The notes: a model not told the origin generated them from the letters alone. Counted from the stretch's first letter, positions 4,082 through 30,421 are shown. The stretch: 64,000 nt of DNA from Methanotrichaceae archaeon (GCA_963803145.1 CAWDLW010000012.1:160001-224000); one strand, 5' to 3'. Numbers and translations: made by a program.

Positions 4082-5338
4082 GTGACATCCAGAATTTCAG
4101 GATTATATAAGCTTCCTCCGGCTGAAAGGCTCAAATCTGTGGCAGAGCAGGCGGGTCTGAGTCAGGAAGACGTATCCCAGATAGAAAATGGACTGAAACT
4201 TGATCAAGCCAACATGATGGTAGAAAATGTCATAGGCATGTTCCAGGTTCCGCTCGGCATAGCTACTAACTTCCTTATAGACGGCAGGGATGTTTTGGTG
4301 CCAATGGCGACCGAAGAGCCTTCAGTTATCGCCGCAGCAAGCAATGGCGCAAGGATGGCACGTGGCGGCGGAGGATTCATGACCAGCAGCACAGGTCCTA
4401 TAATGCGTGCCCAGATCCAGGCCACTCACATCGCCGATCCTAGTGGCGCAAAGCAGGAGATCCTTCTTCATAAGGATGAGCTCATTAAGCTCGCAAATGA
4501 CAAGGACCCAATGCTTGTAAAGTTCGGTGGTGGTGTCAAGGATATCGAGGTCCACATAATCGAATCCAGAGTTGGGCTAATGGTCGTAACTCATCTTATT
4601 GTTGATTGTAGGGACGCAATGGGCGCAAATGCCGTTAACACTATGGCAGAGGCAATAGCACCTAAAATTGAAGAGATAACCGGCGGACGGGTTTATCTGA
4701 GAATAATCTCAAACCTTGCTGATAAGAGGCTCGCAAGGGCAAAGGCTGTTTTCAAGGCCGAAGGAATTGGCGGGGCAGAGATCGTTGATGCGATTATCCA
4801 GGCGGCAGCTCTCGCTGAGGTCGATCCATACAGGGCAGCAACCCATAATAAAGGTATAATGAATGGAGTTACAGCAGTTGTTATGGCTACCGGTAACGAT
4901 ACCAGAGCAGTTGAATCCGGAGCCCATGCTTACGCTTCAGCCAACGGGCGTTATAAATCTCTTACCAGATTTGAGAAAAATAAGGATGGCGATCTCGTGG
5001 GCACGATTGAGCTTCCCATGGCTGTCGGACTTGTCGGCGGTGCTACACGCACTCATCCTGTAGCTAAATCTGCGGTGAAAATCTTAGGTGTTAAGTCTGC
5101 AGATGATCTCTCAAGGATAATAGCATCTGTCGGCCTTGCCCAGAACTTTGCAGCTCTTCGGGCGCTCGCATCTGAAGGCATCCAGAGAGGCCATATGACA
5201 CTTCATGCAAAGAACATTGCTATCCAAGCAGGTGCCGCTTGCGACCTTATCGAGGTCATAGCAGCAAGGATGGCAGCTGAGCGCCGGGTAAGCGTCGATC
5301 GGGCGCTCGAGCTGATCAAAGAGCTGGAGAAGAAATGA
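4082..5338 (+). CDS. mvaA: Hydroxymethylglutaryl-CoA reductase, class II (bacterial type)
   Basis: ENVIG, PMATEEPSVIAAAS, DAMGANAVNT, RAATHNKG, GIQRGHMTLH motifs. Confidence 0.93.
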   Translation: MTSRISGLYKLPPAERLKSVAEQAGLSQEDVSQIENGLKLDQANMMVENVIGMFQVPLGIATNFLIDGRDVLVPMATEEPSVIAAASNGARMARGGGGFMTSSTGPIMRAQIQATHIADPSGAKQEILLHKDELIKLANDKDPMLVKFGGGVKDIEVHIIESRVGLMVVTHLIVDCRDAMGANAVNTMAEAIAPKIEEITGGRVYLRIISNLADKRLARAKAVFKAEGIGGAEIVDAIIQAAALAEVDPYRAATHNKGIMNGVTAVVMATGNDTRAVESGAHAYASANGRYKSLTRFEKNKDGDLVGTIELPMAVGLVGGATRTHPVAKSAVKILGVKSADDLSRIIASVGLAQNFAALRALASEGIQRGHMTLHAKNIAIQAGAACDLIEVIAARMAAERRVSVDRALELIKELEKK

Positions 5339-6135
5339 AGATAGGAGTTCTGGGTCCTGAGGGGTCCTACTCAGATAAGGCAGCGCGTCTTTGGCTGCCT
5401 GAGGCCGATCTTGCCTACTACAGCGACTTCGAGGATGTTCTCAAAGCCGTAGAGGCAGGAGATGTAGACGTGGGAATCGTTCCGCTAGAGAACAGCCTTG
5501 AAGGAGCGATCGGACTGACCATGGATCTTCTTCTTCGAATGCCTTTGAGCATCAGGGGAGAGGTTAACCTGCCAATAAGGCACTGCCTTGTAGGCAGAGG
5601 GGAGGGCGAGGTGAAGGTAATAATCTCGCACCCTCAGCCCCTGGCGCAATGCCGACAGTATATCAAACTGCATTATCCTAAGGCTGAGGTCAGGAGCACA
5701 GGCTCCACAAGCCATGCAGCACGTCTCGCCCAGGAGTTCCCAGAAATGGCAGCCATAGCAGGTGCTGGCGCCGCTGAGAGATATAATCTTAAGATCTTGG
5801 CAAAGGATATCCAGGATGGGAGCGAGAACGTTACCCGATTCGCCGTAGTTGGCAAAGAGATGGAGCCTGCGACAGGAAGGGATAAAACTTCCCTTGCAAT
5901 TTATCTTGATCGCGATAGACCCGGTGCGCTTTATTCCATTCTCCAGGAGTTTGCCATAAGGGATATTAACCTAACAAGAATAGAATCACGGCCAAGCAGG
6001 CGCGGCCTTGGAGACTATTACTTTTACATAGATCTAGAGGGGCATATAAGCGACCCTATAATCGAAGAGGCTCTGGCTATAATAAAAGATAAGGCTGCGA
6101 TGATCAGGGTCCTGGGGTCCTACCCCAGGGCATAA
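5335..6135 (+). CDS. pheA: Prephenate dehydratase with ACT domain
   Basis: LGPEGSYS, PLENSLEG, SHPQPLAQC, NVTRF, NLTRIESRP; ATGA overlap with the upstream gene. Confidence 0.95.
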   Translation: MKIGVLGPEGSYSDKAARLWLPEADLAYYSDFEDVLKAVEAGDVDVGIVPLENSLEGAIGLTMDLLLRMPLSIRGEVNLPIRHCLVGRGEGEVKVIISHPQPLAQCRQYIKLHYPKAEVRSTGSTSHAARLAQEFPEMAAIAGAGAAERYNLKILAKDIQDGSENVTRFAVVGKEMEPATGRDKTSLAIYLDRDRPGALYSILQEFAIRDINLTRIESRPSRRGLGDYYFYIDLEGHISDPIIEEALAIIKDKAAMIRVLGSYPRA

Positions 6136-6140
6136 GTATC

Positions 6141-7031
6141 ATGAATTGGCTTTTCTTCGCCCTGTTGAGCACAGCATCTCTTGCTGTAACTGTCATAATA
6201 GACAAGCTTCTGCTCAATCGCTATGTTCGGAACTCTATAGCCTACCTTATCACATTGATAATAATACAGCAGTTCTTCGCTGCACTGATCCTTATCTTCC
6301 ACGGTGCAAGCTACGATTATCCCACATCCATATACGGAATGCTTGCGGGCACTGCCCAGGCTGCTATGTACGTGGCTTATATCCGTGCGCTGAAAATAGA
6401 AGAGGCATCCAGGGTTACATCTCTCATATTCGTTTATCCTTTGTTCGTCTTCTTGGCAGCGGCAGCACTGCTCGGCGAAACATTGACTGCAAAGGATTAT
6501 GTGGGCGGTCTGATACTAGTTTTAAGCGCTCTGCTGATATCGTATAGGCCATCAGCCACTAGATCCATTGTTTTATCTCCAGCGCTAAAACATATTGTAT
6601 TTTTCTGGTTGTTTTCCACCTTATACGCAATCGGTGTAAAGTATCTTCTTACATTCATGGATGGATGGCATCTTTTCATATGGTCATCCCTGGGGACTCT
6701 GCTGGCGGTCATACCATTAATTGCAGAGCGCGAAATAAGAACAGAGGTCATGGGGTTCTTGAAGATAGGTCGTCTTTTTATCGGCGCTGCAGTTCTTGAG
6801 GAGGTGTTTGATTTTATAGGGAGGATCTCATCGATATTTGCACTTGCCCTCGGTCCTGTCGCCCTCGTATCGGCAGTCGGCGCCCTTCAGCCTGCTATAA
6901 CTTTGATCTTTGTGCTGGCTTTGGGCCTTTTCATGCCTGGGCTGCTTGAAGAGGAGATCGATAGGAGGACTCTGGCCTTAAAGCTCATTGCTGGGATATT
7001 TGTAGTAATAGGGGTTTACCTTGTGTCATGA
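6141..7031 (+). CDS. EamA/DMT family transporter
   Basis: About 10 hydrophobic helices in two repeats; LLGE motif. Confidence 0.8.
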   Translation: MNWLFFALLSTASLAVTVIIDKLLLNRYVRNSIAYLITLIIIQQFFAALILIFHGASYDYPTSIYGMLAGTAQAAMYVAYIRALKIEEASRVTSLIFVYPLFVFLAAAALLGETLTAKDYVGGLILVLSALLISYRPSATRSIVLSPALKHIVFFWLFSTLYAIGVKYLLTFMDGWHLFIWSSLGTLLAVIPLIAEREIRTEVMGFLKIGRLFIGAAVLEEVFDFIGRISSIFALALGPVALVSAVGALQPAITLIFVLALGLFMPGLLEEEIDRRTLALKLIAGIFVVIGVYLVS

Positions 7032-7159
7032 TCCCTCGAATCGTGATCTCTGTCTCTTCAACAGGGAATCTTTCTTATACTAAGCTGGCTTGAAAAAGGG
7101 TTGCCTGGCTATTGGATTTATCTATGATCTATCTATACAGGCTGGAGGGTGCAAACGCT

Positions 7160-9301
7160 ATGGATCCTTTTGAAGGCAAGTTTCCTTATATACCTGAGAG
7201 GATATCGCGCCTCAGCGAGCTGGCATGCAACCTCTGGTGGAGCTGGCATCCGGAAGCGAAGGCTCTGTTCCAGATGCTGAGCGGAAACGGTACCGAATTC
7301 AAGGCCCAGAACCCTGTGAGGCTGCTTCATGATATCGATAGATCTATTCTGGACGATGCCGCTAAAGACTCGCGGTTTTTGAGGCATTATGATGCCGTCA
7401 TTACCAGGTTCGATTCTGAGATGAACGCATATGGAAGCTGGTTCTACTCAAAGATTGCCGACCCCGAAATGAGCCCCATTGCCTACTTTTCGGCTGAATT
7501 TGGACTCCATCATTCGTTACCCTTCTATGCCGGAGGCCTCGGCTTTCTGGCAGGCGATTTTCTTAAGGAATGCAGTGATCTAGGCGTTCCTGCAGTCGGC
7601 GTCGGCTTCATGTATCCTGAAGGCTACCTGCATCAGAGGATCTCATCCGATGGTTGGCAGATGAACGAGAGTGAGACCCTCGACAGGATATATGCCCCTA
7701 TCAGCCATGTGCTGGATAGAGATGGGAGTCCGCTGACCATCAAAGTGCCAACTACTGATCTTTCCGTCTACTTCGAGGTCTGGAAGGCTCAAATAGGCAG
7801 GGTGCCTCTTTACTTGATAGATACCGATATAGAGGGAAATGATCCCTGGAACAGAGGAATATCAGCCAGGCTCTATATAGGGGACCAGGACCAGCGTCTG
7901 GTTCAGGAGATAATCCTGGGAATCGGCGGTACTCAGCTTCTACATGCTCTAGGAATAAAACACTCTATTCTTCACCTCAATGAGGGTCACTCTGCCTTTG
8001 CCATCTTTGAAAGGATCCGGGAGCTGGTGGAGAAGGGCAAGAGCTATAGGGATGCTGCTGAGCAAGTCAGATCCACAACAGTATTCACAACGCATACGCC
8101 TGTGCCTGCAGGACACGATGTCTTTCCTTTCCTTTTAATGGATAAATATTTCAGTTCTTATATACCCATGCTTGAGCTTGATAGAGATTCATTCTTCAAG
8201 CTCGGAGTCGATCCAAAGGACCCGCTTGCAGGATTTAATATGACGGCCTTTGCTCTCAGGATGTCGGCCTACTGTAATGCCGTCAGCAAAAAACACAATG
8301 AGGTTACAAGAGCGATGTGGCAGCATCTCTGGCCAAACTTGCCTGAGGAGAAGCTCCCCATTGGCTATATAACCAACGGGGTCCACGTTCCAACCTGGGT
8401 CGATTCGAGGATCTCAGCCATTTTCAACAAATACCTCGGCCCAACATGGATCGCTGATCACGATAATCCATCTATCTGGCAGCTTGTGGATGATATTCCT
8501 GATTTAGAGCTATGGCAAACCCATAGATTGCTGAAGATGGTGATGATAACAGTCCTACAGGAAAGAGCTAGGCTCAGGTGGATGGAAGACCGAGCAGACC
8601 CTAATATAATCCTGGCATCGGGTATGCTGTTCGATCCAGGAACCCTGACTATCGGCTTTGCCCGCAGATTTGCAAGCTACAAGAGGGCTACTCTTATTAT
8701 GCATGATCTGGAGAGGCTCAAGAGAATACTGAATAATCACAAAAAGCCGGTGCAAATCGTATTTGCTGGAAAAGCACATCCTGCGGATAATTATGGCAAA
8801 CAGCTGATCCAAAGCATCTTCAATATCGCCAAAGAGCCGTCCTTCGGAGGTCGAATAGCCTTTATTGAGGATTACGAAGAGGAGCTTTCCCAGTACCTGG
8901 TTCATGGCGTGGATGTCTGGCTCAATAATCCTCTGCCTCCATTCGAGGCATCAGGCACAAGCGGAATGAAGGCGGCTATCAACGGCGTGCCTCACCTGAG
9001 CATACTCGATGGCTGGTGGCTCGAGGGATATAACGGCAGAAACGGCTGGGCATTTGGCGGCACAAATGGAAACAACTCCGATGCAACAGATGCAGAAGAA
9101 CTTTATTCCATCCTAGAGAAGGATATAATACCTCTTTATTACGATAAAGATGAGCTGGGCATACCACATCCTTGGGTAAAGGTCATGAAAGAATCGATAA
9201 AGAGTGCAGCCCCTTACTTCAGCTCCAGAAGGATGGTAAAGGATTATGCGCTGAAGTTTTATCGAGATGCGCTTAAGTCCGCAGACCGAATAAAGGCATA
9301 A
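7160..9301 (+). CDS. glgP: Alpha-glucan (glycogen/maltodextrin) phosphorylase
   Basis: YFSAEFG, YAGGLGFLAGD, HLNEGH, FTTHTPVPAGHD, ARRFASYKR, EASGTSGMKA (PLP lysine); ATG 7160 after GGAGG. Confidence 0.95.
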   Translation: MDPFEGKFPYIPERISRLSELACNLWWSWHPEAKALFQMLSGNGTEFKAQNPVRLLHDIDRSILDDAAKDSRFLRHYDAVITRFDSEMNAYGSWFYSKIADPEMSPIAYFSAEFGLHHSLPFYAGGLGFLAGDFLKECSDLGVPAVGVGFMYPEGYLHQRISSDGWQMNESETLDRIYAPISHVLDRDGSPLTIKVPTTDLSVYFEVWKAQIGRVPLYLIDTDIEGNDPWNRGISARLYIGDQDQRLVQEIILGIGGTQLLHALGIKHSILHLNEGHSAFAIFERIRELVEKGKSYRDAAEQVRSTTVFTTHTPVPAGHDVFPFLLMDKYFSSYIPMLELDRDSFFKLGVDPKDPLAGFNMTAFALRMSAYCNAVSKKHNEVTRAMWQHLWPNLPEEKLPIGYITNGVHVPTWVDSRISAIFNKYLGPTWIADHDNPSIWQLVDDIPDLELWQTHRLLKMVMITVLQERARLRWMEDRADPNIILASGMLFDPGTLTIGFARRFASYKRATLIMHDLERLKRILNNHKKPVQIVFAGKAHPADNYGKQLIQSIFNIAKEPSFGGRIAFIEDYEEELSQYLVHGVDVWLNNPLPPFEASGTSGMKAAINGVPHLSILDGWWLEGYNGRNGWAFGGTNGNNSDATDAEELYSILEKDIIPLYYDKDELGIPHPWVKVMKESIKSAAPYFSSRRMVKDYALKFYRDALKSADRIKA

Positions 9302-16782: not shown

Positions 16783-19578
16783 GTGAACACATTCAGTCGG
16801 CTCTATCCCTCAATTGGAAAGATGCTAGCGGAGCAATCGATCACAGAGCCGACGCTGCCGCAAAAGCTGGCGATTCCTGAGATCTTGGATGGCAGAAACA
16901 TTCTTCTGATAGCTCCTACGGGCACCGGCAAGACTGAAGCTGCAGCTCTTCCAGTTCTCCATAAAATCCTAGCGGAGGAGCGTTCTGGAACACAGGCTAT
17001 CTATATCACGCCTCTGCGCGCCCTGAACAGGGATATGCTCAGACGTTTCGAAGAGTGGGGTGAGCGGCTGAACATATCAATCGCAGTTCGCCATGGAGAT
17101 ACAAGCAAAAGCGATAGAAGAAGACAGTCATTGAGTCCGCCTGATCTTTTGATCACTACCCCAGAAACTCTGCAGGTGATGCTCACTGGAAAGCGGCTGC
17201 GCAAAAATCTATCGAGCGTGAAGACAGTAATAGTCGATGAGATCCATGAGCTTGCATCATCAAAGAGAGGATCGCAGCTCTTTGTCCTTCTCGAGCGGCT
17301 GGTCGAGATCGCCGGCGAGTTCCAAAGGATCGGCCTGTCTGCTACTGTCGGATCGCCTGAGCAGGTTGCAAGGCTTCTTGCAGGCTCGCAAAGGCCATAT
17401 AAAATCATCAGGGCAGATATCCAGAGGGCTAGCGATTTTAAGATTGTCAGCCCTAACCCTACGCGAGCAGATTATGCTCTCGCAAGCCAGCTGGAATGCG
17501 ATCCTAGGTTAGCTGCACAGATTGGTTGGATCAGGGAGCAGGTCAAACTAAAGAAGTGTCTTATTTTCGTCAACACAAGACAGGCGGCTGAAGTTCTGGG
17601 CTCCAGGTTCAGGCTGCTTGGAGAGCCGATAGGAGTTCATCACGGGAGCCTCTCAGCCGAGACCAGGGTCGAGGCGGAGGAGGCGTTCAAAGGAGGCGCT
17701 CTTCGCGGCCTTATCTGCACATCATCAATGGAGCTTGGAATCGACATCGGTGATGTCGATCATGTCATCCAGTACAGCTCTCCTCGTGAGGTCTCAAGGC
17801 TGCTACAGCGAGTAGGTCGTTCAGGCCATAAGATAGGCCGAACGGCAGAAGGCACAATAATTGCCACATGCCCGGATGATATCGCCGAAGCATGTGCAAT
17901 TGCAAGACGAGCTGGAGAGGCAATGCTCGAAGAGATTCAGATTCACGAGAAGCCGATGGATGCTCTCGCAAATCAGATTGTAGGATTAGAGCTGGACTTC
18001 GGCGACATAAGCCTCCAGCAAGCTCATAGAATCATAACCAGGGCTTATCCCTTCCGTGACCTAACGCTTGATGAGCTGAGGAAAGTAGCAGAGCAGATAG
18101 CCGAAAGCAGACTTACACGAATTCAGGGTGATATCCTCCAGAGGACACGTAAGGCCCGCGAGTACTACTACGAGAACCTCTCGATGATTCCCGATGAGAA
18201 GAGATACAATGTCTACGACATCATCGGCCGCAAATCGATAGGAACATTGGATGAGGCATTTGTAGTCAGCTATGCCCAGCCTGGTGCAACTTTTGTAACA
18301 AAGGGCGAGATCTGGGAGATCTCGGAGATCGACGAGGACGAGATCAAGGTCATGCCTATTCAGCGCAGCGGCGAAATTCCATCCTGGAGCGGTGAAGAAA
18401 TACCTGTTCCATTCGATGTGGCACAGGAGGTAGGCAGGATAAGGGAAAGTGTCCGACTATATCTGGAATCCGATGGCAAGGATGCTGCTGTAAACTGGCT
18501 GACCGAAAGCTATCCTGTTGATCGTGAGGCTGCAGCAGAGTTTATCGATCTGATAGAGATGCAGATAAGGAAAAATCTGCCGGTCCCCGATGACAAACAT
18601 ATCGTTATTGAGGGAGGCGGCACCGAAGTTATCATAAACTCATGCTTCGGCCACAAGACAAACGATACCCTGGGAAGGGCAATAACGGCTATGCTCTCTG
18701 CAAAGTTCGGATCAAGCGTTGCTTCAGAGATAGATCCTTACAGGATAGAGCTGACATTGCCGCGTTCCGTGATCGCTGAGGAGATCGCAAAAACGATCAT
18801 GGAGCTGAAACCCGAGCATCTGGAGCCGATCCTTGAGATGACCCTCAAGAATACCACTCTGCTCAAGTGGAAGATGGTTCATATCGCCAGGAAGTTCGGA
18901 GCTCTATCTAGGGATGTGGACTTCCAGAGAATTAGCATAAACAGGCTGCTCTCAGTATTCGAGGGAACGCCAATGTACCGTGAAGCAATACGGGAAATAT
19001 ACCAGGATCGGTTAGATCTCCCCCGTGCCAGGCAAATACTCGAAGAGATTCACAAAGGCAACATCGTTATTACCACCAGCAGCCCGAGTCCAATAGGTGC
19101 CAGCGGCAGGGGAGGCGGCAGAGATGTGACGTCGCCGGAGCATGCAGATGGCGCAGTAATAGAGCTTCTGAAATCAAGGATCATGAACGATTCCGTGATA
19201 TTATTCTGCGTCAACTGCAAGAAGTGGAAGTCGCTCCGTGCAGTGGGCCGCGTTCCGGAGCAGCCTGAATGTCCCATCTGCGGCTCCAAGATGGTCGCAG
19301 CCCTCAAGCCCTGGGAAGAAGAGGAGATAAAGGTAGTCAAGAAGCCCGAAAAGAAGAAGACGCCAGAAGATCGTCGAAGGACAAAGCGGGTCTTCAGGAA
19401 TGCCAATCTTGTCTTGAGCTATGGCAAAACTGCGGCAATTGCGCTTGCGAGCCGCGGACTTGGGCCCGAGACCGCGGCAAGAGTAATCGGCAAGCTTCGA
19501 ACAGATGAGCTTGAGTTCTATCGGGATATCCTGAAGGCGGAGAGGGAGTATGCGAGGACGAAGAGGTTCTGGAGTTAA
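16783..19578 (+). CDS. lhr: Lhr-like DEAH-box helicase with C-terminal Cys4 motif
   Basis: APTGTGKT, ITPLRALNRD, DEIHE, GLSAT, HHGSLS, QRVGRSGH, WSGE; CVNC..CPIC. Confidence 0.92.
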   Translation: MNTFSRLYPSIGKMLAEQSITEPTLPQKLAIPEILDGRNILLIAPTGTGKTEAAALPVLHKILAEERSGTQAIYITPLRALNRDMLRRFEEWGERLNISIAVRHGDTSKSDRRRQSLSPPDLLITTPETLQVMLTGKRLRKNLSSVKTVIVDEIHELASSKRGSQLFVLLERLVEIAGEFQRIGLSATVGSPEQVARLLAGSQRPYKIIRADIQRASDFKIVSPNPTRADYALASQLECDPRLAAQIGWIREQVKLKKCLIFVNTRQAAEVLGSRFRLLGEPIGVHHGSLSAETRVEAEEAFKGGALRGLICTSSMELGIDIGDVDHVIQYSSPREVSRLLQRVGRSGHKIGRTAEGTIIATCPDDIAEACAIARRAGEAMLEEIQIHEKPMDALANQIVGLELDFGDISLQQAHRIITRAYPFRDLTLDELRKVAEQIAESRLTRIQGDILQRTRKAREYYYENLSMIPDEKRYNVYDIIGRKSIGTLDEAFVVSYAQPGATFVTKGEIWEISEIDEDEIKVMPIQRSGEIPSWSGEEIPVPFDVAQEVGRIRESVRLYLESDGKDAAVNWLTESYPVDREAAAEFIDLIEMQIRKNLPVPDDKHIVIEGGGTEVIINSCFGHKTNDTLGRAITAMLSAKFGSSVASEIDPYRIELTLPRSVIAEEIAKTIMELKPEHLEPILEMTLKNTTLLKWKMVHIARKFGALSRDVDFQRISINRLLSVFEGTPMYREAIREIYQDRLDLPRARQILEEIHKGNIVITTSSPSPIGASGRGGGRDVTSPEHADGAVIELLKSRIMNDSVILFCVNCKKWKSLRAVGRVPEQPECPICGSKMVAALKPWEEEEIKVVKKPEKKKTPEDRRRTKRVFRNANLVLSYGKTAAIALASRGLGPETAARVIGKLRTDELEFYRDILKAEREYARTKRFWS

Positions 19579-19926
19579 GATCGATTGCTCCTCTGATCTT
19601 GAAATCTTCAGATCCGCAGGAGAGCATATCGCTATGATCACTTTAGATTATCTCAATCGTCTATATGTTCCAATAATTCTTCACCATTAGTTTTGTGGCC
19701 CAGAGGTATGTTTTAAATCTCCCTCCTTTACTTACCGCTGGGTCATCTCTTCTCTGATCATCTAACATAGCAAGATCAATGAAGTTTGTGACTCAAGGCC
19801 GATGAAACTGATGCGCTCATATCCACGATAAAGCCCTAGGGCCATAGGCTACAGCTATATGGATATGCTTGCCTTCCAATAAGCCATTAAACCATCAAGA
19901 TAATCAGCACCCACAAGGTGCAAAAC

Positions 19927-20033
19927 ATGGTCGAAGTTGGAGATGCCGCTCCAGAGTTCTGTCTGCCGGCAGGCGACGAGCAAGAGGATGCCTTAGCTCA
20001 TACCGTGGCAGATGGGTTGCGCTTTATTTTTAA
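19927..20033 (+). pseudogene. bcp: Peroxiredoxin (BCP-type) 5' fragment
   Basis: MVEVGDAAPEFCLP.. then, after a 1-nt frameshift near 19988, CLSSYRGRWVALYF*; truncated before the catalytic region. Confidence 0.7.
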
Positions 20034-20691
20034 ACGTAATACCCCACAGCTTGTTGTGGATGGGATAAAGGGCATCCGTATACAACTTAGGGATGGATCA
20101 GCTAGCCAATTGTGATTTAATGCGGCGACGCCTCGCATGCCTCACTGTTTGCAGCGTGAGATAAAATACCGGTAAGAACCTTTTTCATCGAACTTGGAAG
20201 GATCACCTATAATTATATTATCCTTGCCATTCTGTTAGCTGTCGCTTTACATTTTCAAAGGTTGGGTCTTTGATCCTTTCGAAAATTTTAAGCGCAGACT
20301 GAGCATAGTCAACAGCCTTAGATTGTTCCCCTATCTTATATAATACGAGGCTTATATTCCATAAGGCATTGCCCTCTCCAGCAGGGACTCCAATCTTACG
20401 GAAGATTTCTAATGATTGCTCATAGGATTCGATGGCCTGGCGAGATTCGCCTAGTCTCTCATAGGCCACACCAAGGTTGCCTAAAACGTTTGCCTTTCCT
20501 TTAAGATCTCCAATATTATTAGCAATTTCTAATCTCTTTTCATAATATTCAATTGCCTGGATAGGTTCGCCTAACGCACAGTATGCAATGCCTAAATTAT
20601 TTAAATCTGCACATTCTCCTTTCAGATCTCTTAATTCTCTGTCAATTATCAGAGCTTTCTTATAAAATTCAATAGCATATTGAAGCTTACC

Positions 20692-21829
20692 GAGGATTCC
20701 TATTTACTTGTATCCTAAGGGCGGTTTTTTTAAATCGACTCTAGATTTGCCTTACGATGTTCGCTATTCTTGGTCTAACCTGTTTTTTTTCAGTTAATTC
20801 TCGATAGCATCCGCTATCCCTAAATGACATTTGCCTTTTTAAGAGTACAAAGCTGATACAAGTTAAAAGCGAAAGCGGTAACTATCATTTTCACATGCAC
20901 TCTTCTGACTGATGTAACAAGCACTCTTCCAGCCTCGAAAACCCTCTTGATTACAGCATGGGGCCTTTCGCCAGGCGATCTGAGGATACTGATCAACTGA
21001 TTGCGTTCTTTATCAAGATCAGAAAGAGGTTTATCAGTAGTCCTGCGCTTCATTGTAAAATCAATACCTTTGGCCTTCACACCGAAATATCCTCTATCTC
21101 TGAAAACTGGCACGCCAGGGATAGAGAGATCAACCTGACTGTCATGCAGTGATGCAGTCGAGGTCTCTATATCACGTATTAGGCTGTAATCGATATCAGT
21201 TATTTGATGTAACTTATATCCGAAGTGAGTTTCATTGCCTTTCTTAGCCCATGTGCCATCCTTGCTGCGACGTGTCTTAGCCTCATCGCCACGTGGTTTC
21301 TTTGACTCCGATGATCCTGGATCTGCTTCTATAAAGGTAGCATCCTGAACAATTCCGCGTCTGATCTTCAATCCTTTTGCATCCAACTGTCTTTGAAGTT
21401 CAGCCCAAACAAGCCTATCTGTTCCTGTCTCCGCCATTCGTTCTTTGAATGACCATATAGTTCTGGAATCAGGGAACTGATCAGGAAAACCAAGAAATGC
21501 CATAAATGATATGCGATCAGCCATTTGCCGTTCAACAGCCAGATCGCTCAGGCCATACCACTGCTGGAGAATCAGGATCCTGAACATTAGAATAACATCA
21601 CAGTTGGGCCTTCCTCCCTTCTCGGTCTTATTAGTATACATCCCTTCCAGAAGAGGACGAAAGGGAACCCAATTGATCAATCCAGATACTTGAGCTAATT
21701 TAGACTCCTCTTGCTTTGCATTTAGACCTTTCAATACCCAAGTAGTAAAAGAATCCATAACAATAAATACTATTTGCTGTATTTAACACTTTCGATGCTA
21801 AAGCAGGGGGTAGGTTTATAGGAATCCTC
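20692..21829 (-). mobile_element. IS5-family insertion sequence
   Basis: 16-bp TIRs GAGGATTCCTATTTAC / GTTTATAGGAATCCTC (14/16); 4-bp target duplication TACC at 20688-20691 and 21830-21833. Confidence 0.93.
20820..21758 (-). CDS. IS5-family DDE transposase
   Basis: GGRP, LQQWYGLSD, PDSRTIW, QDATFI, GYKLH, RDRGY, R..GERP; intact 312 aa. Confidence 0.93.
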   Translation of the reverse strand: MDSFTTWVLKGLNAKQEESKLAQVSGLINWVPFRPLLEGMYTNKTEKGGRPNCDVILMFRILILQQWYGLSDLAVERQMADRISFMAFLGFPDQFPDSRTIWSFKERMAETGTDRLVWAELQRQLDAKGLKIRRGIVQDATFIEADPGSSESKKPRGDEAKTRRSKDGTWAKKGNETHFGYKLHQITDIDYSLIRDIETSTASLHDSQVDLSIPGVPVFRDRGYFGVKAKGIDFTMKRRTTDKPLSDLDKERNQLISILRSPGERPHAVIKRVFEAGRVLVTSVRRVHVKMIVTAFAFNLYQLCTLKKANVI

Positions 21830-23850
21830 TACCTATTGATAGATAAATAGTCCCTATATTCCCTAGAACTGTTTCTTCTCCGACAAGATCTTTAATTTCT
21901 TGGGAGATCTTAAGGCTTTTATTATAGAAATCTAATGCAATATGAGGCTTACCTAGTTTTAAATATATATTACCTAGATCACATAATGCTGTATATTCTC
22001 CCTTGATATCCCTTAAATAACATGAAATTTCCAATCGCTTTTCATGCATCTGAATACCCTGTTGAAATTTCCCAGTTTGCGAATAGATTCTGCCTAAAGA
22101 ACTCAAAGCTTTGCTTGCCCCTCTTAAATCCCCTCTCCCTAAATGGATTTCTAAAGCCTTCCGATACGATTCATCAGCTTTTTTTAACTTCCCCAGATGC
22201 TGATAAACCCTACCGAGATTGCCACAGGCGTTGCCTTCGCCATACTTATCTCCAATTTTATGGGCTATATGAAGAAATCTCTTAAAAAGTTTAAGGGCAT
22301 TATGGTAATCTCCAAAATGAATATTGGCGTTACCCATATTGCCTAGTACATAACACTCTAATTGGCGATTTCTAATCTTATGGGCGACAGCAAGTGCCTG
22401 ATTATAATAATCAATAGCAAGATGCATATCTCCTAGATCAGCACAAGCTAAGCCTAACAGATTAAGGAAAGCTCCCTCGTTGTTGTAATCTCCAATAGCA
22501 AGCGCAGCCTGTAAGCCTGCTTTGGCTACCTTAACTCTTTCTGTTGAATAGCCTTGTAAATCTAAGTAATTATCGAACATTAAGGTTATTTTACAGACAG
22601 CATCCCATTCACTAGCATCAAGGCAAGCAGATTGTAGCGCTAAAATATGAGCGCGATTAGTATCAATGATGATCTTACCTGGTAGACCCGGACCCCCTTG
22701 CTCCTTTAATAAGTTACAGTAATATTGAGCAAGGCGTAATAACATATCATGCTCCGTTACTAGATCTTTTCGTGCGTATGTATATGCTAATGTATGCGCT
22801 ACGTGATAGAACGTATCAGGTCTTATTATCAAACCGTAATCTACTAGCTCCCCCAAATGGCGATCAGCTTCATGTCTAGGTATATTTAAGGCTGTAGCGA
22901 TGAGTTCTGGACCAAAAGGGCTCATTGCTAATATGCCAGCCACCCTAAATGAGGCGCGTGATAACTCACTTAGCTGATCTAAGCTACGCTTCATTAATAC
23001 AGGTATACTTTGATGCTGCCGCTCTCCTAGGTCTAGGGCTGCCAGAGGTGTGGCCTCAAGCCATGCAAGATAATCCTCGGCTTGTTGATGGCATTGAGAC
23101 ATATATTTTCCTGCTAGAACGATCGCAAGGGGTAAGCCCCCCAGGAATTCACAAATCCTATTAGCTGATACTTCATCGGCTGCATAATTATGCCCCCATG
23201 CACGTAATAGCTGGATAGCTTGGTCTTGTGGTAAAGGTGATAAATCACTCCAATCGGCAGGAGCATCTCTATGACGTCGACTAGTAATGATAATACCACA
23301 ACTCACAGCAACCTCTAAGATTACATCCAAATTATCGGCAGATTCAGCACCATCTAATATAAGAAGGGCTTTGCGACCTGCCAATGCACGGCGAGCAGTA
23401 TCGATTGGGCTGGGTCGTGGATCTTCTCCAAATGCACGGGCTAATGCCTCTAAGGCAAGACTGGCCTGGGGTTGATGGTAAAATGTATGAAAAATCACTC
23501 CATCTGGAAATTGACTGGGGGGACTATTATCAGGGGCAAGGCGCCAAAGTATCTCAGATACAAGAGCAGTCTTGCCGATACCTCCTGGACCACATAATGT
23601 AACTGCATAACCAGGCTTTAATGAATCTAATAAGGTTGCAAGTTCCTTTTCACGGCCAACAAAATGGTGGGTTCGGGGCGGCTTCTGCAGAGGGATATGT
23701 AGTGAAAGAGACGGCGCGTTAATAATGACTGGCCCATGAAACTTTCCAGAAAGCACTGGGCCATCTGCATTTCCCCTTATGTTAGTCTGGGAACCATCTC
23801 CAGCTTTATCCTGTTGGCTCATGGTGGATTCCCTTTATTATCCGATATTT

Positions 23851-24288
23851 TCATTTGGATTCTCTTGCGTTAACTGAACCGTGGAAATTGCCTGAAAGCA
23901 CAGGGCCATTTACATTACCAGCGATGTTTGTCTGTGAGCCATGGATTATTTGTCCACGCTGATCGAAAACACTGCTGGCTGTACCTTTCTCTTCAATTGC
24001 TTCAATTAACTTGCCTACTTCTTCAGCGAACTTCGTGTCCTTTTCCATTTTTTCAGCTAAGACATCCTTAAGTGCTGCCTGCCTATCTTCTGACTCAGGT
24101 TTCTCTTTTGCGCGAGCTAGCGTTTGCTCGGCGAATGTGTCTCCTTTGAATTTATTCTCGACTGCCTGGCATAATTCCACAAACTTTTTGCCGAGTCCCT
24201 CGCCAGCAGTTTTGATAAATGAATCTCCTCCCTTGGCAAGATAGGGGGCTGCTGCAGCTGCGATTAATCCAACATCGACAGGTAACAT
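23851..24288 (-). CDS. BELL/HeLo-like small helical effector with C-terminal amyloid-like motif
   Basis: Hydrophobic N-helix (VGLIAAAAAPYLAKGG), charged helical body, C-terminal GSQTNIAGNVNGPVLSGNFHGSV that is 18/23 identical to the NLR N-terminus; 28 nt upstream of the NLR start. Confidence 0.8.
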   Translation of the reverse strand: MLPVDVGLIAAAAAPYLAKGGDSFIKTAGEGLGKKFVELCQAVENKFKGDTFAEQTLARAKEKPESEDRQAALKDVLAEKMEKDTKFAEEVGKLIEAIEEKGTASSVFDQRGQIIHGSQTNIAGNVNGPVLSGNFHGSVNARESK

Positions 24289-24441
24289 ATTGCCCGAACC
24301 TCGGATGCTTTCTTAGGGGTATGGAGTGATAAATTTTATCCTATCGCTTATTGTAAAACCTACTGAACATAATGGGCTGTTAATATGATTAATATGGCGG
24401 TATCTTAAGCCTGAATGCCTTTAACAATTCACTAAAGGAGA

Positions 24442-25760
24442 CTATTTATCACGCTTTTGTTTTTCAATAGGGCTGTCGAGCGTAACTTCATGAATGAAAG
24501 TTCCTGAAAGTACGTGTCCATGCACATCGCCGTAAATATTCGTTATGGCTTTTGCTCCTATGAACAAAGAGGTTAATAAGACCAGCTTTAAAGTTTCAAA
24601 TCTCTGTTCTAATGTTGCTGTATCTTGAGATTCTAATAGAGCAAGGGTTTCAAGATACTCTTGTGCCTCCTTGGGAAATTTTTTGCAGTGAAGCTTCAGA
24701 AGTGGAACAATCTCCAGCAAATAACGATCTGCAGCTATTGGTGAGCTGATATCTTTCAACCCCTTAGTTGCATCGTAAGTAAGCTTTCCGAAATCTTCAA
24801 GAGCAGTTCCCTTAGAGCTTTTACAGAGCTTCCGTGCTGCATCCTCTACATCCTTAAATATAGTCTTGATTTTATCATCGATGATCGGGATTCCCCTTTC
24901 AACCATAGCAGCATCTACTACCTTGGAAGCAAAAGGTGCTCTGCCCCTTACCCTCTCCAAGCAATCCACTGCCTGGAAGCAATATCTAGTGTAGGCTTTG
25001 AGATCCTGTTTCCGAGATATCATATCTTCCACGGTATATGTCTTGACCTCCCAGAGAGCCTTAGATAGGTTATCCACAGCTTCAAGGAGGATCTCCTCCA
25101 TACTCTCAGAGACTTTTACTGCCTCCTTAGCCTCTTAGCCTCAGCTAGATATCTCTGGATCTCCTCTGCCTTAGATACATCTCTAAACAAAAGACTGTGT
25201 AGTGATTTATAAAAGGGCAGACAAAAAACAGCATGGTTCTCATTTCTCCAATTCCCCGGGCTATCCGAGGATTTTTGGAAGAATTCGATCGCTTCTTCTA
25301 GGTGAGCTTTGAGATCCCTATCATCGGCCTCAGTTGCCTTGAAGATGCATGCCCGACCTAAGGAATGATAGGAGATAGACCTGATGGCTTCATCCTTCTC
25401 CTTAGAGAGCCTATCTAATTCTCTCCAAACTAGAGACTTGTAAGGCAAGCTAGGGAATAACGATCCAAGCACGCAGCCTACTTCCCATCGTACATAGCGA
25501 TTCCGGTCATTAGCTAATCTGTGAAGATCCTGCCATACAAGATGATCGCTAGGCAAGTTAGGGAACGCCAACTCAATCGCGGCAACTGCATATTTTCGCA
25601 CAAGAAAATGGTGATCCTGGGTTAGCCTATGTAGGTCTTGCCAGGCAGCTTCTTTGTCATCCAGATGGTCAAACTCGTTTCCGAGCAGTGTTGCAGCATG
25701 TTGCCTATGTTCTGTACTCTCAGAAATTGACATCTCATGGATCTCTGCGTAGGATACCAA
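24442..25760 (-). pseudogene. HEAT-repeat protein with C-terminal amyloid-like motif, frameshifted
   Basis: WQDLHRL..D...VR HEAT repeats; deleting one copy of tandem TTAGCCTC (25127-25142) fuses ORFs 25116-25760 and 24442-25101 (..YLAEAKEAVKVSESMEEILL..) into 436 aa. Confidence 0.85.
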
Positions 25761-25890
25761 GGACTAGCACCAGCGAGTACATACTTAAAAGAGCTTATAA
25801 GTTTATGCCTTTCCATGGCCGCCGCTAATCTACATCTTTTAGATACTAACGAGATATAACTATCATGGATCAAAACCACTAATATTCCTC

Positions 25891-26115
25891 TTAGCCTTTA
25901 TTCTCCTTTCTCATCACCTCCACCCGCACCGAAAACACTGCCGACTCTAATGGCTCATCCAGCGTATAGAATGCCTCTCTTGAATGCTTCTTGGCCATTT
26001 CGGCGATCATCTGACCGTAAATCTGGTCTTCCTTCTTCAGCGCCTTCGAAGCCTTCAGCCACCTTGTCGAGACTTCCTTCACGGCCATTCTCACGATCTC
26101 AATACTTCGGCCCAC
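25891..26115 (-). CDS. Small conserved archaeal protein (MGRS..VR type, reminiscent of the small ORF found in PolB2 neighbourhoods)
   Basis: MGRS..VRM..ALKKEDQ..H..EA..PLES pattern recalled from that family; no polB2 in window. Confidence 0.55.
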   Translation of the reverse strand: MGRSIEIVRMAVKEVSTRWLKASKALKKEDQIYGQMIAEMAKKHSREAFYTLDEPLESAVFSVRVEVMRKENKG

Positions 26116-26155
26116 GCTATCTACCTATAGGAGAGGGATAACTTTAGCGATTAAA

Positions 26156-26401
26156 GGACAACTCGTAACATAGGGTCCTTATAATTATATTTGGCATCCC
26201 TCTTATACCGGCGGCCTGCTAATTTTTGTAAGGGTATCCTTGGCGATTGGGACTTGGCTTGGGGCGATCTTTGCTCTTGCTGCAAACTTGATAGCTTACC
26301 GTTACCGCATTCGAGTTGAAGAAGAGGCGTTGCAAGAGGCTTTTGGCTCCGATTACGAAGTGTATAGAAGAAGAACTTGGAAATTATTTCCAGGCTTTTA
26401 A
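26156..26401 (+). pseudogene. Isoprenylcysteine carboxyl methyltransferase-family 3' fragment
   Basis: GQLVT*GPYNYIWHPSYTG..RIRVEEEALQEAFGSDYEVYRRRTWKLFPGF*; 5' part absent, internal TAG at 26171. Confidence 0.75.
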
Positions 26402-27048
26402 AAGAAGGCACGAAGAAAGCATGGCCAAAGTTAGAATCCCTTGTGGCTGCGAGTATCAACCTTAAGGAGAAAACAGCATGCTGCAGCTCAAAAATCGATA
26501 TTTGCGAGTATCAGCGAGTATCAAAATGACCCCAATATGGGTAATCACTGATATACTCATTGCCTGCAAAAGCAAGAGCCAATAATCATTCGCGGCGACA
26601 GCTATGATTAGGTGCAAGGAGTTAGAAGAAAAAGATATGGTGTATAAAGTAGAGTATAGAAAAAACATGGATGGCATGGATGGTAACGCATTATCACTCA
26701 GACCATGCTGGGTTGGCCCAGGAGGTTAAACTGAAGGGCGTCCGGCTTGTCGTCCTAGAAAATCGGATGCCATTTATCCCAAAGCTGCGAACATAGATGA
26801 AGCCAAGCAGTCCTTACATTGAGATTGCTCTTGATGATAACCTCAGTCTCAGCTTCAAAGACAGCCGAGCTTTCTTGCAGCGTTTTGCATAATGGGCCTG
26901 TCAGGCGTCTGAAGAGCCCGACGATTAATAGGACGAATGATAGTAGCTATTAGGATAATCTTTAATAATTTCCCATTAAATTATGGCTAAGATACATGAT
27001 AAACTTAGAATTGTTATGCGTAACTATCTCAAGGTGGAGGTTAATAGA

Positions 27049-27705
27049 ATGAGGCTGACAAGCGTCTTGTTATTGGCCATATTGCTTTTATGTTTATCTG
27101 TTCATGCTGCTGATGATGATTATTACCTAGGCGCTGCCGCAGTGCCAAGCATTCCAGCGCCGAATATGGATGTGCCAAGTCCTGTCGTCTCAGCCCCGAA
27201 TATGGGCATGACGGATACAAAACCTGCGCCTTTAGTTAAGCCAAACAACATTAATCCGAGCAATAATCTTAATCCAACCTCCAATCAAACCTCGAATAAA
27301 GTCGGCAATGTGAGCGCCGATCAGACTCAAGTGGCACAAATACAACAAACAGCCAAGACAATGGATGTAAGCGGCAAATGGTTGATAATGTTCGACGATG
27401 GATCTGACAGGTCGCTTGATCTGACACTATGGCAATCTGCCGGAGCTGCAGGAATCATGGGTTTCGGCACTTTGACTGAAGAGGGCACAAAGAATTCTGT
27501 GACTGCCAGCGGATCTGTAACAGCTGAGGAGCTCAAATTAACCGCTAAGCTAGCCACGCCCGAACAGGCCAATCTGAAGTACGACGAGTGTGATCTCGAC
27601 CTGCATAATGTGAATGATACCCTATCAGGAACTTATGTCCTGAGATCCGCCGGTCAGTTTTTAGTGAAGGGGAATGCAACAGCAGAGACGGCTCCCGCTT
27701 CATAG
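27049..27705 (+). CDS. Secreted hypothetical protein with Pro/Asn-rich linker
   Basis: GGAGGT RBS, signal peptide MRLTSVLLLAILLL, beta-rich C-terminal domain. Confidence 0.72.
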   Translation: MRLTSVLLLAILLLCLSVHAADDDYYLGAAAVPSIPAPNMDVPSPVVSAPNMGMTDTKPAPLVKPNNINPSNNLNPTSNQTSNKVGNVSADQTQVAQIQQTAKTMDVSGKWLIMFDDGSDRSLDLTLWQSAGAAGIMGFGTLTEEGTKNSVTASGSVTAEELKLTAKLATPEQANLKYDECDLDLHNVNDTLSGTYVLRSAGQFLVKGNATAETAPAS

Positions 27706-27967
27706 ACATTTAAGAATTCAAAATCTAGAGGGATCTGCCTCCTTCATAGGCATTAGCTTTTTGAATTTTTTTATAAAGGCTTATGCTAATGCACTGTCAT
27801 TATTGGCTATCTTAGCTGTTATTTGGTTAATGGAGTAATCCCCAGTTTGCCAACGGAAACATTAATTAGCATTAACTTCCATTAATAAAAACTAAATAAA
27901 GGATAATGATCCTTGCCTATTAGACATAGTTCACAGCGAAATTAAGGCGCAACGGCGGAGTTACTTC

Positions 27968-30421
27968 ATGGATGACAGCATAATAATGAAAAAGTTGCTA
28001 CATGAAGCTTTTAACAATAAAAAACAGTTAATCTCTTTCCGAAGCGCCCTAATACTTGGGGCCTGCATTATTCTTGGTAACATAGTGATAGTTGTCTCGC
28101 TAAGAGATAACCTAGCGCTTATCAGGACAGTTGGCGATTTTGTAGCTCCTCTAATAGAGCTTTTTTCGGTATTCTGTATGGCCTATGCAGCTAGCAATTT
28201 CAAAAAATCAGGAGAGCAGGTATGGCTCGCCTGGGTTATTCTCGCTGCTGCCCAGTTCTCTTATGCGATTGGAGATGTTGTATGGTCCATAATCGAATTA
28301 GGACAACATCGATTACCCTTCCCATCGCGAGCGGATGGATTTTATCTGATGTTTTACCCTCTATTTGCTGCAGGTATTCTTCTTTTGCCCAAAAGACCCA
28401 TGGCCTCAGGTGACAGGATTAAGGTACTATTGGACACTGGCATCGTGATGATTGCCTCCATTTTGCTGTTTTGGGCATTCTTGATCGCTCCGGCCGTTAA
28501 GTCCTTTTCGGGGACAGATGCCTTTACTGTGATTCTTGCTGTGGGCTATCCCATAATGGATCTGCTGCTAATCTTTACGCTGATAGAGCTATTGCTCAGA
28601 AGGCTAAGTTACACAGAAATCAGCCCGTTGGCTCTATTAACAGCTAGCATAGTGATAATGATCATCACTGATATAATTTTCATGAACCAATCATTACAGA
28701 GGAAGTACATCTCAGGTGGCTTGTTGGACACGGGGTGGTATGCAAGCTTTTTATTGATGGGGCTTGCCGGCATACTTCAGGCAAATTCACAGCGATTCAA
28801 TCTACCATCCCTATCTTTAGTACCTGAACCCAAGCCTAGATACGTCCAGTTTACGTGGCCTCTTTATTTTCCTTATATATTGGCGGGAGTTGCCTACATT
28901 CTTCTTATCTACAATTACAATCACCCGTTTCCCATAGCATTTTCCACTATGGCTCTAAGTGTGGGCTGCATCGTTGGCCTTGTAATCATCCGTCAGATTG
29001 TTGCCTTAAAAGAAAACTCCAGGCTGTATGGGATGACCCTAAAGGAGATTGCTGAACGCAATAAAAAAGAAGAAGAGATCAAGAGGCTCAACGAAGAGCT
29101 GGAAGTTCGGGTTATCGAGCGCACTGCAGAGCTCGACGATACAAACAAAAGGCTGCGAAATGAGATCCTTGAACGTGAAAAGACTGAAGAGGATCTGCAT
29201 AAGGCCAAAGAAGCAGCGGAAGCTGCAATGACAGCTAAATCTGAGTTCCTCGCCATTATGAGCCATGAGATAAGGACCCCAATGAATGCAGTCATTGGAA
29301 TGACCGGTTTCCTCCTGGATTCTAATCTCGATAAAGAGCAGCGTGAACACGTTGAGATTATAAGAAATAGCGGCAATGCTCTTCTCTCTGTAATAAATGA
29401 TATTCTTGACTTCTCTAAAATCGAGAACGGTAAGATGGTGCTGGAGAGCCAAGCATTTGATCTTAGAAGTTTTATTAAAGCCAGCATGGATTTGGTAGCT
29501 AACAATGCCGCCGAGAAAGGCCTGAAGCTGGTATGTATAATAGAAGATTCTGTGCCTAGTGCAATCATAAGCGATCCGACTAGGCTACGTCAGATCTTGG
29601 TCAATCTGCTCAGCAACGCCGTCAAGTTTACTGATAAAGGCGAGGTCGAGATATCCGTCACCTCCCAGACGATTAAGGATGGCAGATGCGAGCTTCACTT
29701 TGCTATCAGGGATACTGGGATTGGGATACCAAAGGATAGAATGGACAGGCTCTTCCAATCATTCAGCCAGATCGATATGACCACCACTCGGAAGTATGGT
29801 GGAACAGGTTTAGGACTGGCCATAAGCAAGCGCCTTGTCGAAATCATGGGCGGCAAGATCTGGGCGGAAAGCGAGTCGGGGATAGGATCTACATTTCACT
29901 TTATGCTTTCGGTTGATACGTCATTGGATCATTTCCCCAAGCCTGAAGAGGCTCCTTATCGATCAAAGGGCAATGTTCATGCTAACGCTAATGCTAATTT
30001 GCGCATCCTCCTTGTAGAGGATAATGTGATCAATCGGAAGGTCATGTTGCATATGCTCAAGAAGCTGGGCTATAGAGCAGAGGTAGCTGCAGATGGCATG
30101 GAGGCTCTCAGGATTCTAAATCTCGAGCATTATGACATTGTGCTTATGGATATACAGATGCCGGGGATGGATGGCATTGAGGCCACAAAGGAGATACGCA
30201 AACGTTGGCCCAATGGGCCGGTGGTCGTTGCTCTCACTGCCTATGCATTGGATGGTGACCGAGAGCGATGCATGGAGGCAGGCATGGATGGATACATTAG
30301 CAAGCCTGTGAAGATAGAGGAGCTGGAAGCTGTGCTGCTGAATTGCGAGGATAAAATAGCAGAACGATCGGGTTCCTACAAAAAGGAGAGCGAGATAACT
30401 GGGCTTGTCAATAACACCTAG
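27968..30421 (+). CDS. Hybrid sensor histidine kinase (multi-TM input, HisKA, HATPase_c, REC)
   Basis: [48 protein letters not shown]. Confidence 0.95.

Follow-up and report, generated by a model that had tools for sequence, protein, structure and literature searches.

A HEAT-repeat protein as a candidate third carrier of the amyloid-signalling motif in an archaeal Bell/NLR cluster

Overview

Here we describe a gene cluster on the minus strand of a 64,000-nucleotide stretch of DNA from a Methanotrichaceae archaeon (GCA_963803145.1, CAWDLW010000012.1:160001-224000; hereafter the window), where a Bell-like effector gene and an NLR-like gene that share an amyloid-signalling motif are preceded by a third carrier, a gene encoding HEAT repeats, a helical domain and a C-terminal tail related to the second half of the motif. 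We favour the interpretation that this locus is an archaeal Bell/NLR amyloid-signalling cluster in which the HEAT-helical protein is most likely a client on the effector side, and assign it a probability of about 0.55. An earlier reading of the DNA (the sequence-only reading) had proposed a third motif carrier, and the present analysis bears this out, placing it directly upstream of the pair and in the same orientation. In addition, we find features that the earlier reading had not described, namely a frameshift that splits the HEAT-helical gene, an insertion sequence (IS) that cuts the NLR gene, a tail that comprises half of the motif, and a helical domain that intervenes between the HEAT repeats and the motif.

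The tail matches the second half of the Bell/NLR motif

The motif core of the HEAT-helical gene consists of 20 residues (24484-24543, minus strand), which correspond to the second half of the amyloid-signalling motif shared by archaeal Bell and NLR proteins and to residues 187-206 of a 219-residue open reading frame (ORF), ending 13 residues before the stop codon. The sequence-only reading had counted 12 of 20 identities to the effector motif, and our own count arrives at the same figure for the Bell-side copy. When extended to a 24-residue frame, the tail shares 12 of 24 residues with the Bell copy and 11 of 24 with the NLR copy, compared with 18 of 24 between the Bell and NLR copies and 16-18 of 24 among the canonical copies themselves. 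The proposed consensus TNIxGxxxGxVLSGxFxxxV likewise fits the Bell, NLR and HEAT-helical genes, all three. When all six reading frames of the 4.13-Mb genome are searched with a permissive regular expression, four matches are obtained, comprising the three copies in the window and one in a second Bell-like gene located on contig C34.

A hidden Markov model (HMM) was built from 12 Bell- and NLR-side copies of this genome and related genomes, with the tail from the window excluded, and searched against the 72,419 stop-to-stop six-frame ORFs of at least 30 amino acids in the whole genome. The Bell and NLR motifs are the top matches (E=1.9e-22 and 5.6e-18, respectively), and the tail scores 23.6 bits with E=1.1e-4, where the next unrelated ORF reaches E=1.4; the tail similarity pointed out by the sequence-only reading is thus significant in a profile search. 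The match runs from profile position 14 to 33 and thereby covers only the second half of the ~35-residue motif. The structural positions of the motif, which include three glycines and the hydrophobic positions, are kept in the tail, as are all seven invariant columns of the 14-row profile alignment A1, in which the tail itself forms one of the rows. At the DNA level, no similarity was detected between the tail region and the other motif copies. Judged from the protein sequence, the tail is homologous to the Bell/NLR motif.

HEAT repeats, helical domain and tail derive from one split gene

The sequence-only reading treated the interval 24442-25760 as a single HEAT-repeat gene. Rather, in this assembly the interval comprises two ORFs in different frames, which are split by an 8-nucleotide (nt) duplication. 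The 5' part (25116-25760, minus strand) encodes 214 residues with a family-typical N-terminus, about three 36-residue repeats and a capping region, matches Pfam HEAT_2 (E=6e-7, 30.1 bits against a gathering cut-off of 27.7) and terminates with a stop codon at 25116-25118. The 3' part (24442-25101, minus strand) encodes the 219-residue ORF, in which the helical domain occupies residues 1 to ~187 and is followed by the motif tail. The exact, frame-shifting tandem duplication that splits the gene is located at 25126-25142 (minus strand), as identified by a script scan for perfect tandem units, and Tandem Repeats Finder reports a period of 8 with 2.6 copies at 25121-25142.

Deletion of one 8-nt copy in silico restores a 436-residue frame devoid of stops, which aligns in a single alignment with residues 1-487 of P0010, an intact metagenomic protein of 496 residues that contains HEAT repeats, helical domain and tail (41.8% identity, E=2e-117). 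When the two parts are taken separately, residues 10-209 of the HEAT ORF align to residues 1-269 of P0010, and residues 5-208 of the 219-residue ORF align to residues 281-487. Because the two parts are colinear with intact P0010, and because relatives carry both parts on one ORF, the HEAT ORF and the 219-residue ORF are read here as one ancestral gene that has been split by the 8-nt duplication. In both the window gene and P0010 the order is HEAT repeats, helical domain, motif tail. Thus, the earlier assignment of the motif to a HEAT-repeat protein stands at the level of the family, as exemplified by P0010, but not for the HEAT ORF in the window, which itself lacks the tail; nor does the tail directly end the HEAT repeats, since a distinct helical domain lies between them.

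The 219-residue frame has its own ATG, 14 nt past the stop codon of the HEAT ORF, such that a separate product from this frame is conceivable. The split is a feature of this assembly and may reflect a real mutation or an assembly error, both of which are possible. A search of public reads listed three DNA runs with small shares, all from one study, and no RNA data set among the entries listed. The public-read contigs (three, 151-nt) match only 24065-24326 and 24892-25042, with the duplication site and the IS junction lying outside these intervals.

The helical domain defines a family of HEAT-repeat proteins

The helical domain has no family match in Pfam, PADLOC or NCBIfam and no usable match in the Atlas, and a sequence-profile search of the PDB with this domain returns a best match of only E=0.064. 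Similarly, no NTPase family matches the HEAT-helical protein. The possibility that the helical domain represents a divergent Bell domain is ruled out by profile-profile comparison, where hhalign gives a probability of 0.4%. The helical domain has 241 relatives at E<=1e-3 among 1.84 billion representatives. It is present in 36 of the 105 genomes of the order and extends to further families of the phylum, where 21 of 401 genomes sampled contain it. In source records, close relatives are named as Methanotrichaceae HEAT repeat proteins.

HEAT repeats and the helical domain reside on one ORF in 19 of the relatives' 20 ORFs (18 of 19 loci), where the HEAT repeats stop ~10 residues before the helical domain. 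The number of HEAT repeats varies widely among relatives, from about 3 to 17, and the repeats are mutually only 31-45% identical; relatives also score higher for HEAT, for example P0007 with 101 bits. Beyond the helical domain, relatives run on for another 100-150 residues, and the typical ending is a coiled-coil-like region, often with a hydrophobic C-terminus. An uncharged, hydrophobic C-terminal 14-mer, like that of tail-anchored proteins, is observed in 10 of 26 complete relatives, and the remaining ends are amphipathic or formed by another conserved module.

We note that Cys41 of the 219-residue ORF is nearly invariant in alignment A2, where two additional cysteines appear mostly conserved and Ala-Pro-x-Ala and Pro-x5-Ile elements are also evident. 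Split or stop-interrupted HEAT-helical genes are found at 3 of the 19 relatives' loci (L033, L042 and L050), reflecting either frequent decay or assembly trouble in repeats. No conserved partner gene is present around ten HEAT relatives, the neighbours of which include some defence-like genes (GmrSD, SNF2/NOV_C with HD, an Eco57I-type methylase and MazF) and many housekeeping genes.

The motif tail is rare and does not define a clade

Only 3 of 168 examined family proteins carry the tail, namely the window protein (E=2.3e-7), P0017 (E=6.2e-6) and P0010 (E=1.1e-5), with the next best protein at E=3.3. P0017 is a metagenomic fragment of 152 residues that retains the tail, shares 64% identity with P0010 and is colinear with it through the tail. 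Further carriers were found neither in the 105 genomes of the order, where no alignment to the 219-residue ORF passes residue 197, nor in the 401 sampled genomes of the phylum, where the tail is spanned in the window's genome alone, nor among 18 long relatives, where coverage reaches at most 83%. One additional candidate, G374, was rejected, its sequence lacking the motif.

When 43 helical-domain rows are placed in a tree, the tail carriers do not form one group. Rather, the window copy nests among relatives with ordinary endings, P0010 and P0017 occupy basal branches, and an approximately unbiased (AU) test disfavours the grouping of the three (p=0.022). Since the carriers do not constitute one clade, the motif ending appears to have been gained, or exchanged between paralogs, more than once, and each time at the end of the helical domain. 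There is hardly any linker between this domain and the motif (alignment A2).

The tail-bearing gene adjoins a Bell/NLR pair

The 219-residue ORF is directly upstream of, and collinear with, the Bell/NLR pair on the same strand, with gaps of 14 bp between the HEAT ORF and the 219-residue ORF, 153 bp from there to the Bell-like gene and 28 bp from the Bell-like gene to the NLR gene. The Bell-like effector (23851-24288, minus strand) comprises 145 residues, starts with a hydrophobic segment and carries a full C-terminal motif (alignment A3), where the motif profile matches at 23866-23970. Homologs are present in 42 of the 105 genomes of the order, and the protein aligns with relatives over its full length. 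No match is obtained in Pfam, NCBIfam or PADLOC, which are libraries lacking a Bell profile. Bell domains are helical bundles with a hydrophobic N-terminal helix, and the putative Bell-like assignment is made from the hydrophobic N-terminal segment and the conservation of the family (alignment A3). The NLR-like gene (21816-23822, minus strand) encodes 668 residues, with a full motif within the first 38 residues and Pfam matches to NB-ARC (E=1.8e-7, 31.1 bits against a cut-off of 23.5) and several TPR families, among them TPR_12 (E=5.4e-30). In their adjacency, collinearity and shared motif, these two genes resemble Bell/BASS-NLR clusters, in which a short effector of ~120-140 residues adjoins an NLR-like protein with NB-ARC or NACHT followed by TPR or WD repeats.

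At the other loci examined, the association of HEAT-helical proteins with such pairs is not seen. Among 8,164 ORFs scanned in the stretches surrounding other HEAT relatives, none bears the motif, and no Bell or NLR match is present at 19 relatives' loci; the lone tail carrier with known context is the family member that adjoins the Bell/NLR pair. The contig of P0010, 7.3 kb in length, and that of P0017 are not among the metagenome contigs (12 loci, 32-46% identity) or genome contigs (2 loci) recovered, and a region search with residues 400-496 of P0010 finds P0010 as its sole match. As the contexts of these two proteins were not recovered, the linkage stands on a single locus.

The NLR gene is interrupted in a variable island

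The NLR ORF terminates four codons into the inverted repeat of a 1138-bp IS (20692-21829), which has perfect 12-nt terminal inverted repeats, is flanked by TACC on both sides and encodes a DDE transposase (20820-21758; Pfam DUF772 and DDE_Tnp_1). The interrupted TPR repeat resumes in frame beyond the IS, within the displaced 3' end of the NLR gene (20218-20691, minus strand), where Pfam TPR_12 is matched with E=9.3e-11 on 20218-20469. We infer from this arrangement that the sensor has recently lost ~160 residues of its repeat domain by insertion of the IS. The genome contains 13 copies of this IS that are 98.4-100% identical, suggesting that it has expanded recently. With the NLR truncated and the HEAT-helical gene frameshifted, the signalling circuit is probably impaired in this genome.

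Gene order shared with two congeneric genomes stops just past an Lhr-like helicase gene (16783-19578), at ~19.6-20.0 kb, and the G+C content within 19600-30000 is 40-45%, compared with 47-52% on the flanks. The cluster appears to sit in a variable island, the ancestral state of which is not revealed by synteny with these two genomes. We also note that the genome is 4.1 Mb in size, compared with 2-3 Mb for most relatives.

Additional carriers and half-motifs are common in the order

A survey of the order with the A1 profile detects the motif in 43 of 105 genomes. Three motif matches occur within ~5 kb on eight contigs, and two on about a dozen, such that a cluster of three carriers is not exceptional, whereas the sequence-only reading had set it apart from the textbook two-gene pair. 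Four of the three-match contigs were checked by Pfam, revealing a Bell-motif-CHAT fusion with two NB-ARC/TPR genes (G040:C61), a Bell gene with an NLR and a caspase-motif-NB-ARC-TPR protein (G014:C45), a Bell gene with two NLRs (G072:C50), and an NLR with a Peptidase_C14 protein bearing a C-terminal motif and an NB-ARC protein (G057:C30). Moreover, several NLRs hold the first half of the motif alone. The survey therefore indicates that extra carriers and half-motifs are ordinary in this motif family, and the unusual carrier is, by its predicted domains, the HEAT-helical protein, which is neither a Bell protein, a protease nor an NLR.

A number of further arrangements were observed. Across alignments A1 and A3, the motif acts as two halves, where Bell proteins carry both, several NLRs the first and HEAT-type tails the second. 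The genome of the window harbours a second Bell/NLR cluster (L031, contig C34 of G000, 5462-8442), where a 139-residue orphan ORF (6036-6455) is located between the Bell-like and NB-ARC/TPR genes. This ORF contains only the first motif half, at its N-terminus (E=8.9e-5), and no homolog was found in the 104 other genomes of the order. Just upstream of the C34 cluster is an IS110-family transposase gene (3655-4914).

In L102 (8440-9705) and L112 (10348-11502), a Bell-like N-terminus is followed by a full motif in the middle of the protein and a CHAT protease domain (Pfam CHAT, E=1.5e-8 and 2.7e-9, respectively), an architecture that is unnamed in the literature consulted. L103 (3465-6761) and L109 (2736-5267) are NLRs with an N-terminal Peptidase_C14 domain, which retain the motif, between caspase and NB-ARC, in addition to their built-in effector. 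In the caspase-domain proteins L093 (8253-9626), L094 (4428-5813) and L097 (9599-10600), the motif comes after the protease, and in two of the three ~140 more residues follow, at the start of which lies another conserved, Gly-rich element. In L096 (7415-8368), L100 (7596-8048) and L101 (7141-7860), the N-terminus is hydrophobic and membrane-like and comes ahead of the motif and, in L096 and L101, of an NB-ARC-type P-loop region; these three may represent membrane-anchored NLRs with an internal motif.

Comparison with known amyloid-signalling systems

Bell domains and BASS motifs were defined in a preprint (Dyrka et al. 2020), where identities of 43-56% are reported for cross-seeding BASS pairs; the 50-60% identity between the tail and the Bell motif is within or above this range. 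The Bell/NLR pair in the window resembles the described Bell/NLR BASS pairs, including that of Methanothrix soehngenii, where a small Bell protein with a C-terminal motif is likewise encoded upstream of a collinear NB-ARC/TPR protein with an N-terminal motif, but differs by the presence of a third gene upstream, encoding a HEAT-helical protein with the second motif half. The published archaeal pairs are unmatched by the BASS1-10 profiles, and the archaeal motif has been called 'resembling BASS3' (PMC8086366). A 25-residue peptide from the M. soehngenii NLR forms Congo-red-positive, beta-rich aggregates (Dyrka et al. 2021, PMC8086366), and the peptide as printed corresponds to the first half of the present motif family.

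A parallel in gene organization is Chaetomium globosum's hellp-sbp-pnt1 cluster, which encodes the NLR PNT1, HELLP and the lipase SBP, and where SBP is brought to the membrane region by HELLP (PMC7885112). As in the window, one NLR and two effector-side proteins are encoded by adjacent genes and share one amyloid motif (PMC7885112, PMC7889193). In contrast, that system is fungal, its motif is PP/RHIM-like and its second client is an enzyme, whereas the predicted HEAT-helical client has no recognisable enzymatic domain and carries a half motif. The use of the motif as a portable C-terminal tag on varied globular domains is also shared with known C-terminal-motif enzymes encoded beside NLRs, and related genomes carry the motif on caspase (Peptidase_C14) and CHAT proteins. 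However, these enzymes contain immune or death domains that are also found fused to NLRs, and the HEAT-helical module is neither, among the proteins examined.

In NTP-dependent conflict systems, effector-associated domains (EADs) serve as small homotypic adaptors, one copy of which is carried by the core sensor and further copies by several proteins with effector or signalling roles (Kaur et al. 2020, PMC7159879). The window cluster is similar in that one adaptor is shared by a sensor and multiple partners, often within the same operon for EADs, but distinct in that EADs are folded and mostly helical, whereas the present motif is short and presumed to adopt a cross-beta fold. In the Bab/Agp antiphage system of E. 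coli, the non-NLR sensor Agp uses an amyloid motif (Ibarlosa et al. 2024). Here, too, the motif mediates a hand-over, in which a sensor with repeats that is not an NLR acts on a Bell-related executioner, showing that non-NLR partners can participate. This system differs in comprising only two components and in its sensor, which bears the motif N-terminally and contains TPR, GreA/B-C and PIN domains.

The term 'HEAT' is absent from the main texts of Dyrka 2020, Ibarlosa 2024 and PMC12261475, with the supplementary tables of the two preprints possibly naming further carrier types, and the papers listed in a literature search on HEAT repeats, amyloid signaling and NLRs concern, by title and abstract, fungal NLRs or the RHIM motif. 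The sequence-only reading had considered the architecture undescribed. This holds insofar as no published description of a HEAT-repeat carrier of such a motif was found, but not for the three-carrier arrangement, since a fungal cluster of this kind is already published (PMC7885112).

The HEAT-helical protein as a probable effector-side client

The proposed placement of the HEAT-helical protein on the effector side follows from its domain order. The motif is located C-terminal to the globular part, as in the Bell proteins and caspases that carry it, and the protein has no NTPase module. Consistently, related clusters contain caspase proteins with a C-terminal motif. The arrangement that characterizes a sensor, with the motif N-terminal to a nucleotide-binding module, is not observed, the HEAT-helical motif being C-terminal. 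Because the tail matches the motif of the neighbouring sensor and executioner, the HEAT-helical protein is probably a third client of the same cluster.

In the mechanism that we envisage, oligomerization of the NLR would allow its N-terminal motif to nucleate a cross-beta fold, which would then template the Bell tail and the HEAT-helical tail together. By templating, the HEAT-helical protein would become part of the Bell assembly and might also be brought to the membrane, as SBP is by HELLP. Since the motif occupies the place of the hydrophobic end found in many relatives, recruitment in response to the NLR would replace constitutive anchoring.

Several observations weigh against this interpretation. 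With regard to the tail, the Pro that usually follows the second Gly in the family and the final Gly-Pro are missing, and only the second motif half is present, whereas the peptide test in the literature used the first half. The tail is also marginally closer to the unlinked Bell protein on contig C34 (13 of 24 identities) than to its neighbours (12 and 11 of 24). With regard to the protein, no toxic or enzymatic domain is recognised in Pfam, PADLOC or NCBIfam, and no fusion of the helical domain to an NLR is seen, with only HEAT-type Pfam families being present in the precomputed annotations of 18 long relatives and in scans of five relatives. With regard to the locus, the HEAT-helical gene lacks an intact frame in this assembly, the NLR is disrupted by the IS in this genome and the linkage of tail and Bell/NLR pair is known from one locus. 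Moreover, a TATA-like element can be read from the sequence upstream of the Bell-like gene, which suggests that the Bell and NLR genes may be transcribed as a unit of their own.

Alternative interpretations

That the HEAT-helical protein acts as a second sensor, whose HEAT array binds a ligand, whose helical domain oligomerizes and whose C-terminal motif activates Bell in parallel to the NLR, is an interpretation we regard as rather unlikely. HEAT arrays form superstructures like the TPR and WD sensor regions of NLRs, and their repeat number in this family ranges from ~3 to 17; two sensors per Bell are common in the clusters of this order, and a non-NLR sensor bearing such a motif does exist in Agp (Ibarlosa et al. 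2024). However, both the described systems and the surveyed NLRs place the motif before the NTPase module, at or near the N-terminus, whereas the HEAT-helical motif is C-terminal with no NTPase module matched. In addition, the HEAT repeats are 31-45% identical, compared with the 80-90% reported for the fast-evolving repeats of NLRs (Dyrka et al. 2020), and most relatives lack any amyloid partner. The state of the locus raises a different question, namely whether the tail is an evolutionary relic, acquired by recombination in a variable, IS-rich island that is now decaying, without a three-way function. The frameshift in the HEAT gene, the interruption of the NLR by an IS with 13 near-identical copies, the end of synteny past the helicase gene, the drop in G+C to 40-45%, the near-absence of a linker between helical domain and motif and the split or interrupted copies at 3 of 19 relatives' loci (L033, L042 and L050) are all consistent with this scenario. 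We nevertheless consider it unlikely, as intact P0010 and the fragment P0017 keep the architecture with 64% mutual identity including the tail, the structural positions of the motif (three Gly and the hydrophobics) are retained, and the lack of DNA-level similarity to other motif copies gives no indication of a recent copy event.

The incomplete motif could also be taken to mean that the HEAT-helical protein is a regulator or decoy, in which the half-motif, with its altered conserved positions, caps or diverts NLR/Bell fibrils and thereby damps or buffers signalling. A bulky HEAT cargo beside a short motif might block elongation, and viral RHIM proteins block necroptosis via hetero-amyloid formation, providing an analogue for such a role. 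Yet NLRs with the first motif half alone are frequent in the same clusters, where they are presumably active partners, which argues that half-motifs are not inhibitory in themselves, and we judge this role to be improbable. Lastly, a Gly-rich C-terminus might resemble the motif by chance, given that only 20 residues are involved and that they are less similar to the other copies than those are to one another. A genome-wide profile match of E=1.1e-4, four orders of magnitude ahead of the next match, the location of the stretch at a C-terminus beside the contig's only other carriers, and the occurrence of the same tail in two relatives indicate that chance resemblance is effectively excluded.

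Implications for archaeal amyloid signalling

The hand-over of an amyloid conformation by an NLR-like sensor to a death effector is established in fungi and was also demonstrated for a single defence system of E. coli, whereas the archaeal evidence has so far consisted of gene-pair predictions and one peptide assay. In the archaeal order surveyed here, one motif family is associated with many partners, comprising Bell proteins, Bell-CHAT fusions, caspases, caspase-NLR fusions, putative membrane-anchored NLRs and the HEAT-helical protein. A more far-reaching proposal, which we regard as tentative and less likely than not, is that HEAT-helical proteins represent an unrecognised class of clients of archaeal NLR amyloid signalosomes, the ending of which has more than once been exchanged for a half motif, and that the motif is bipartite and allows a combinatorial wiring of sensors and clients. 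If this were true, most members of the family would be placed constitutively by their hydrophobic or coiled-coil C-terminus, and in a few lineages placement would depend on NLR activation and co-templating with Bell. A non-enzymatic client with a half-motif raises the question of how much of the motif suffices for templating, and whether scaffolds or regulators are recruited besides killers. The interest of the locus lies mainly in its value as a pointer towards non-enzymatic clients and towards the use of the archaeal amyloid-signalling motif in two parts.

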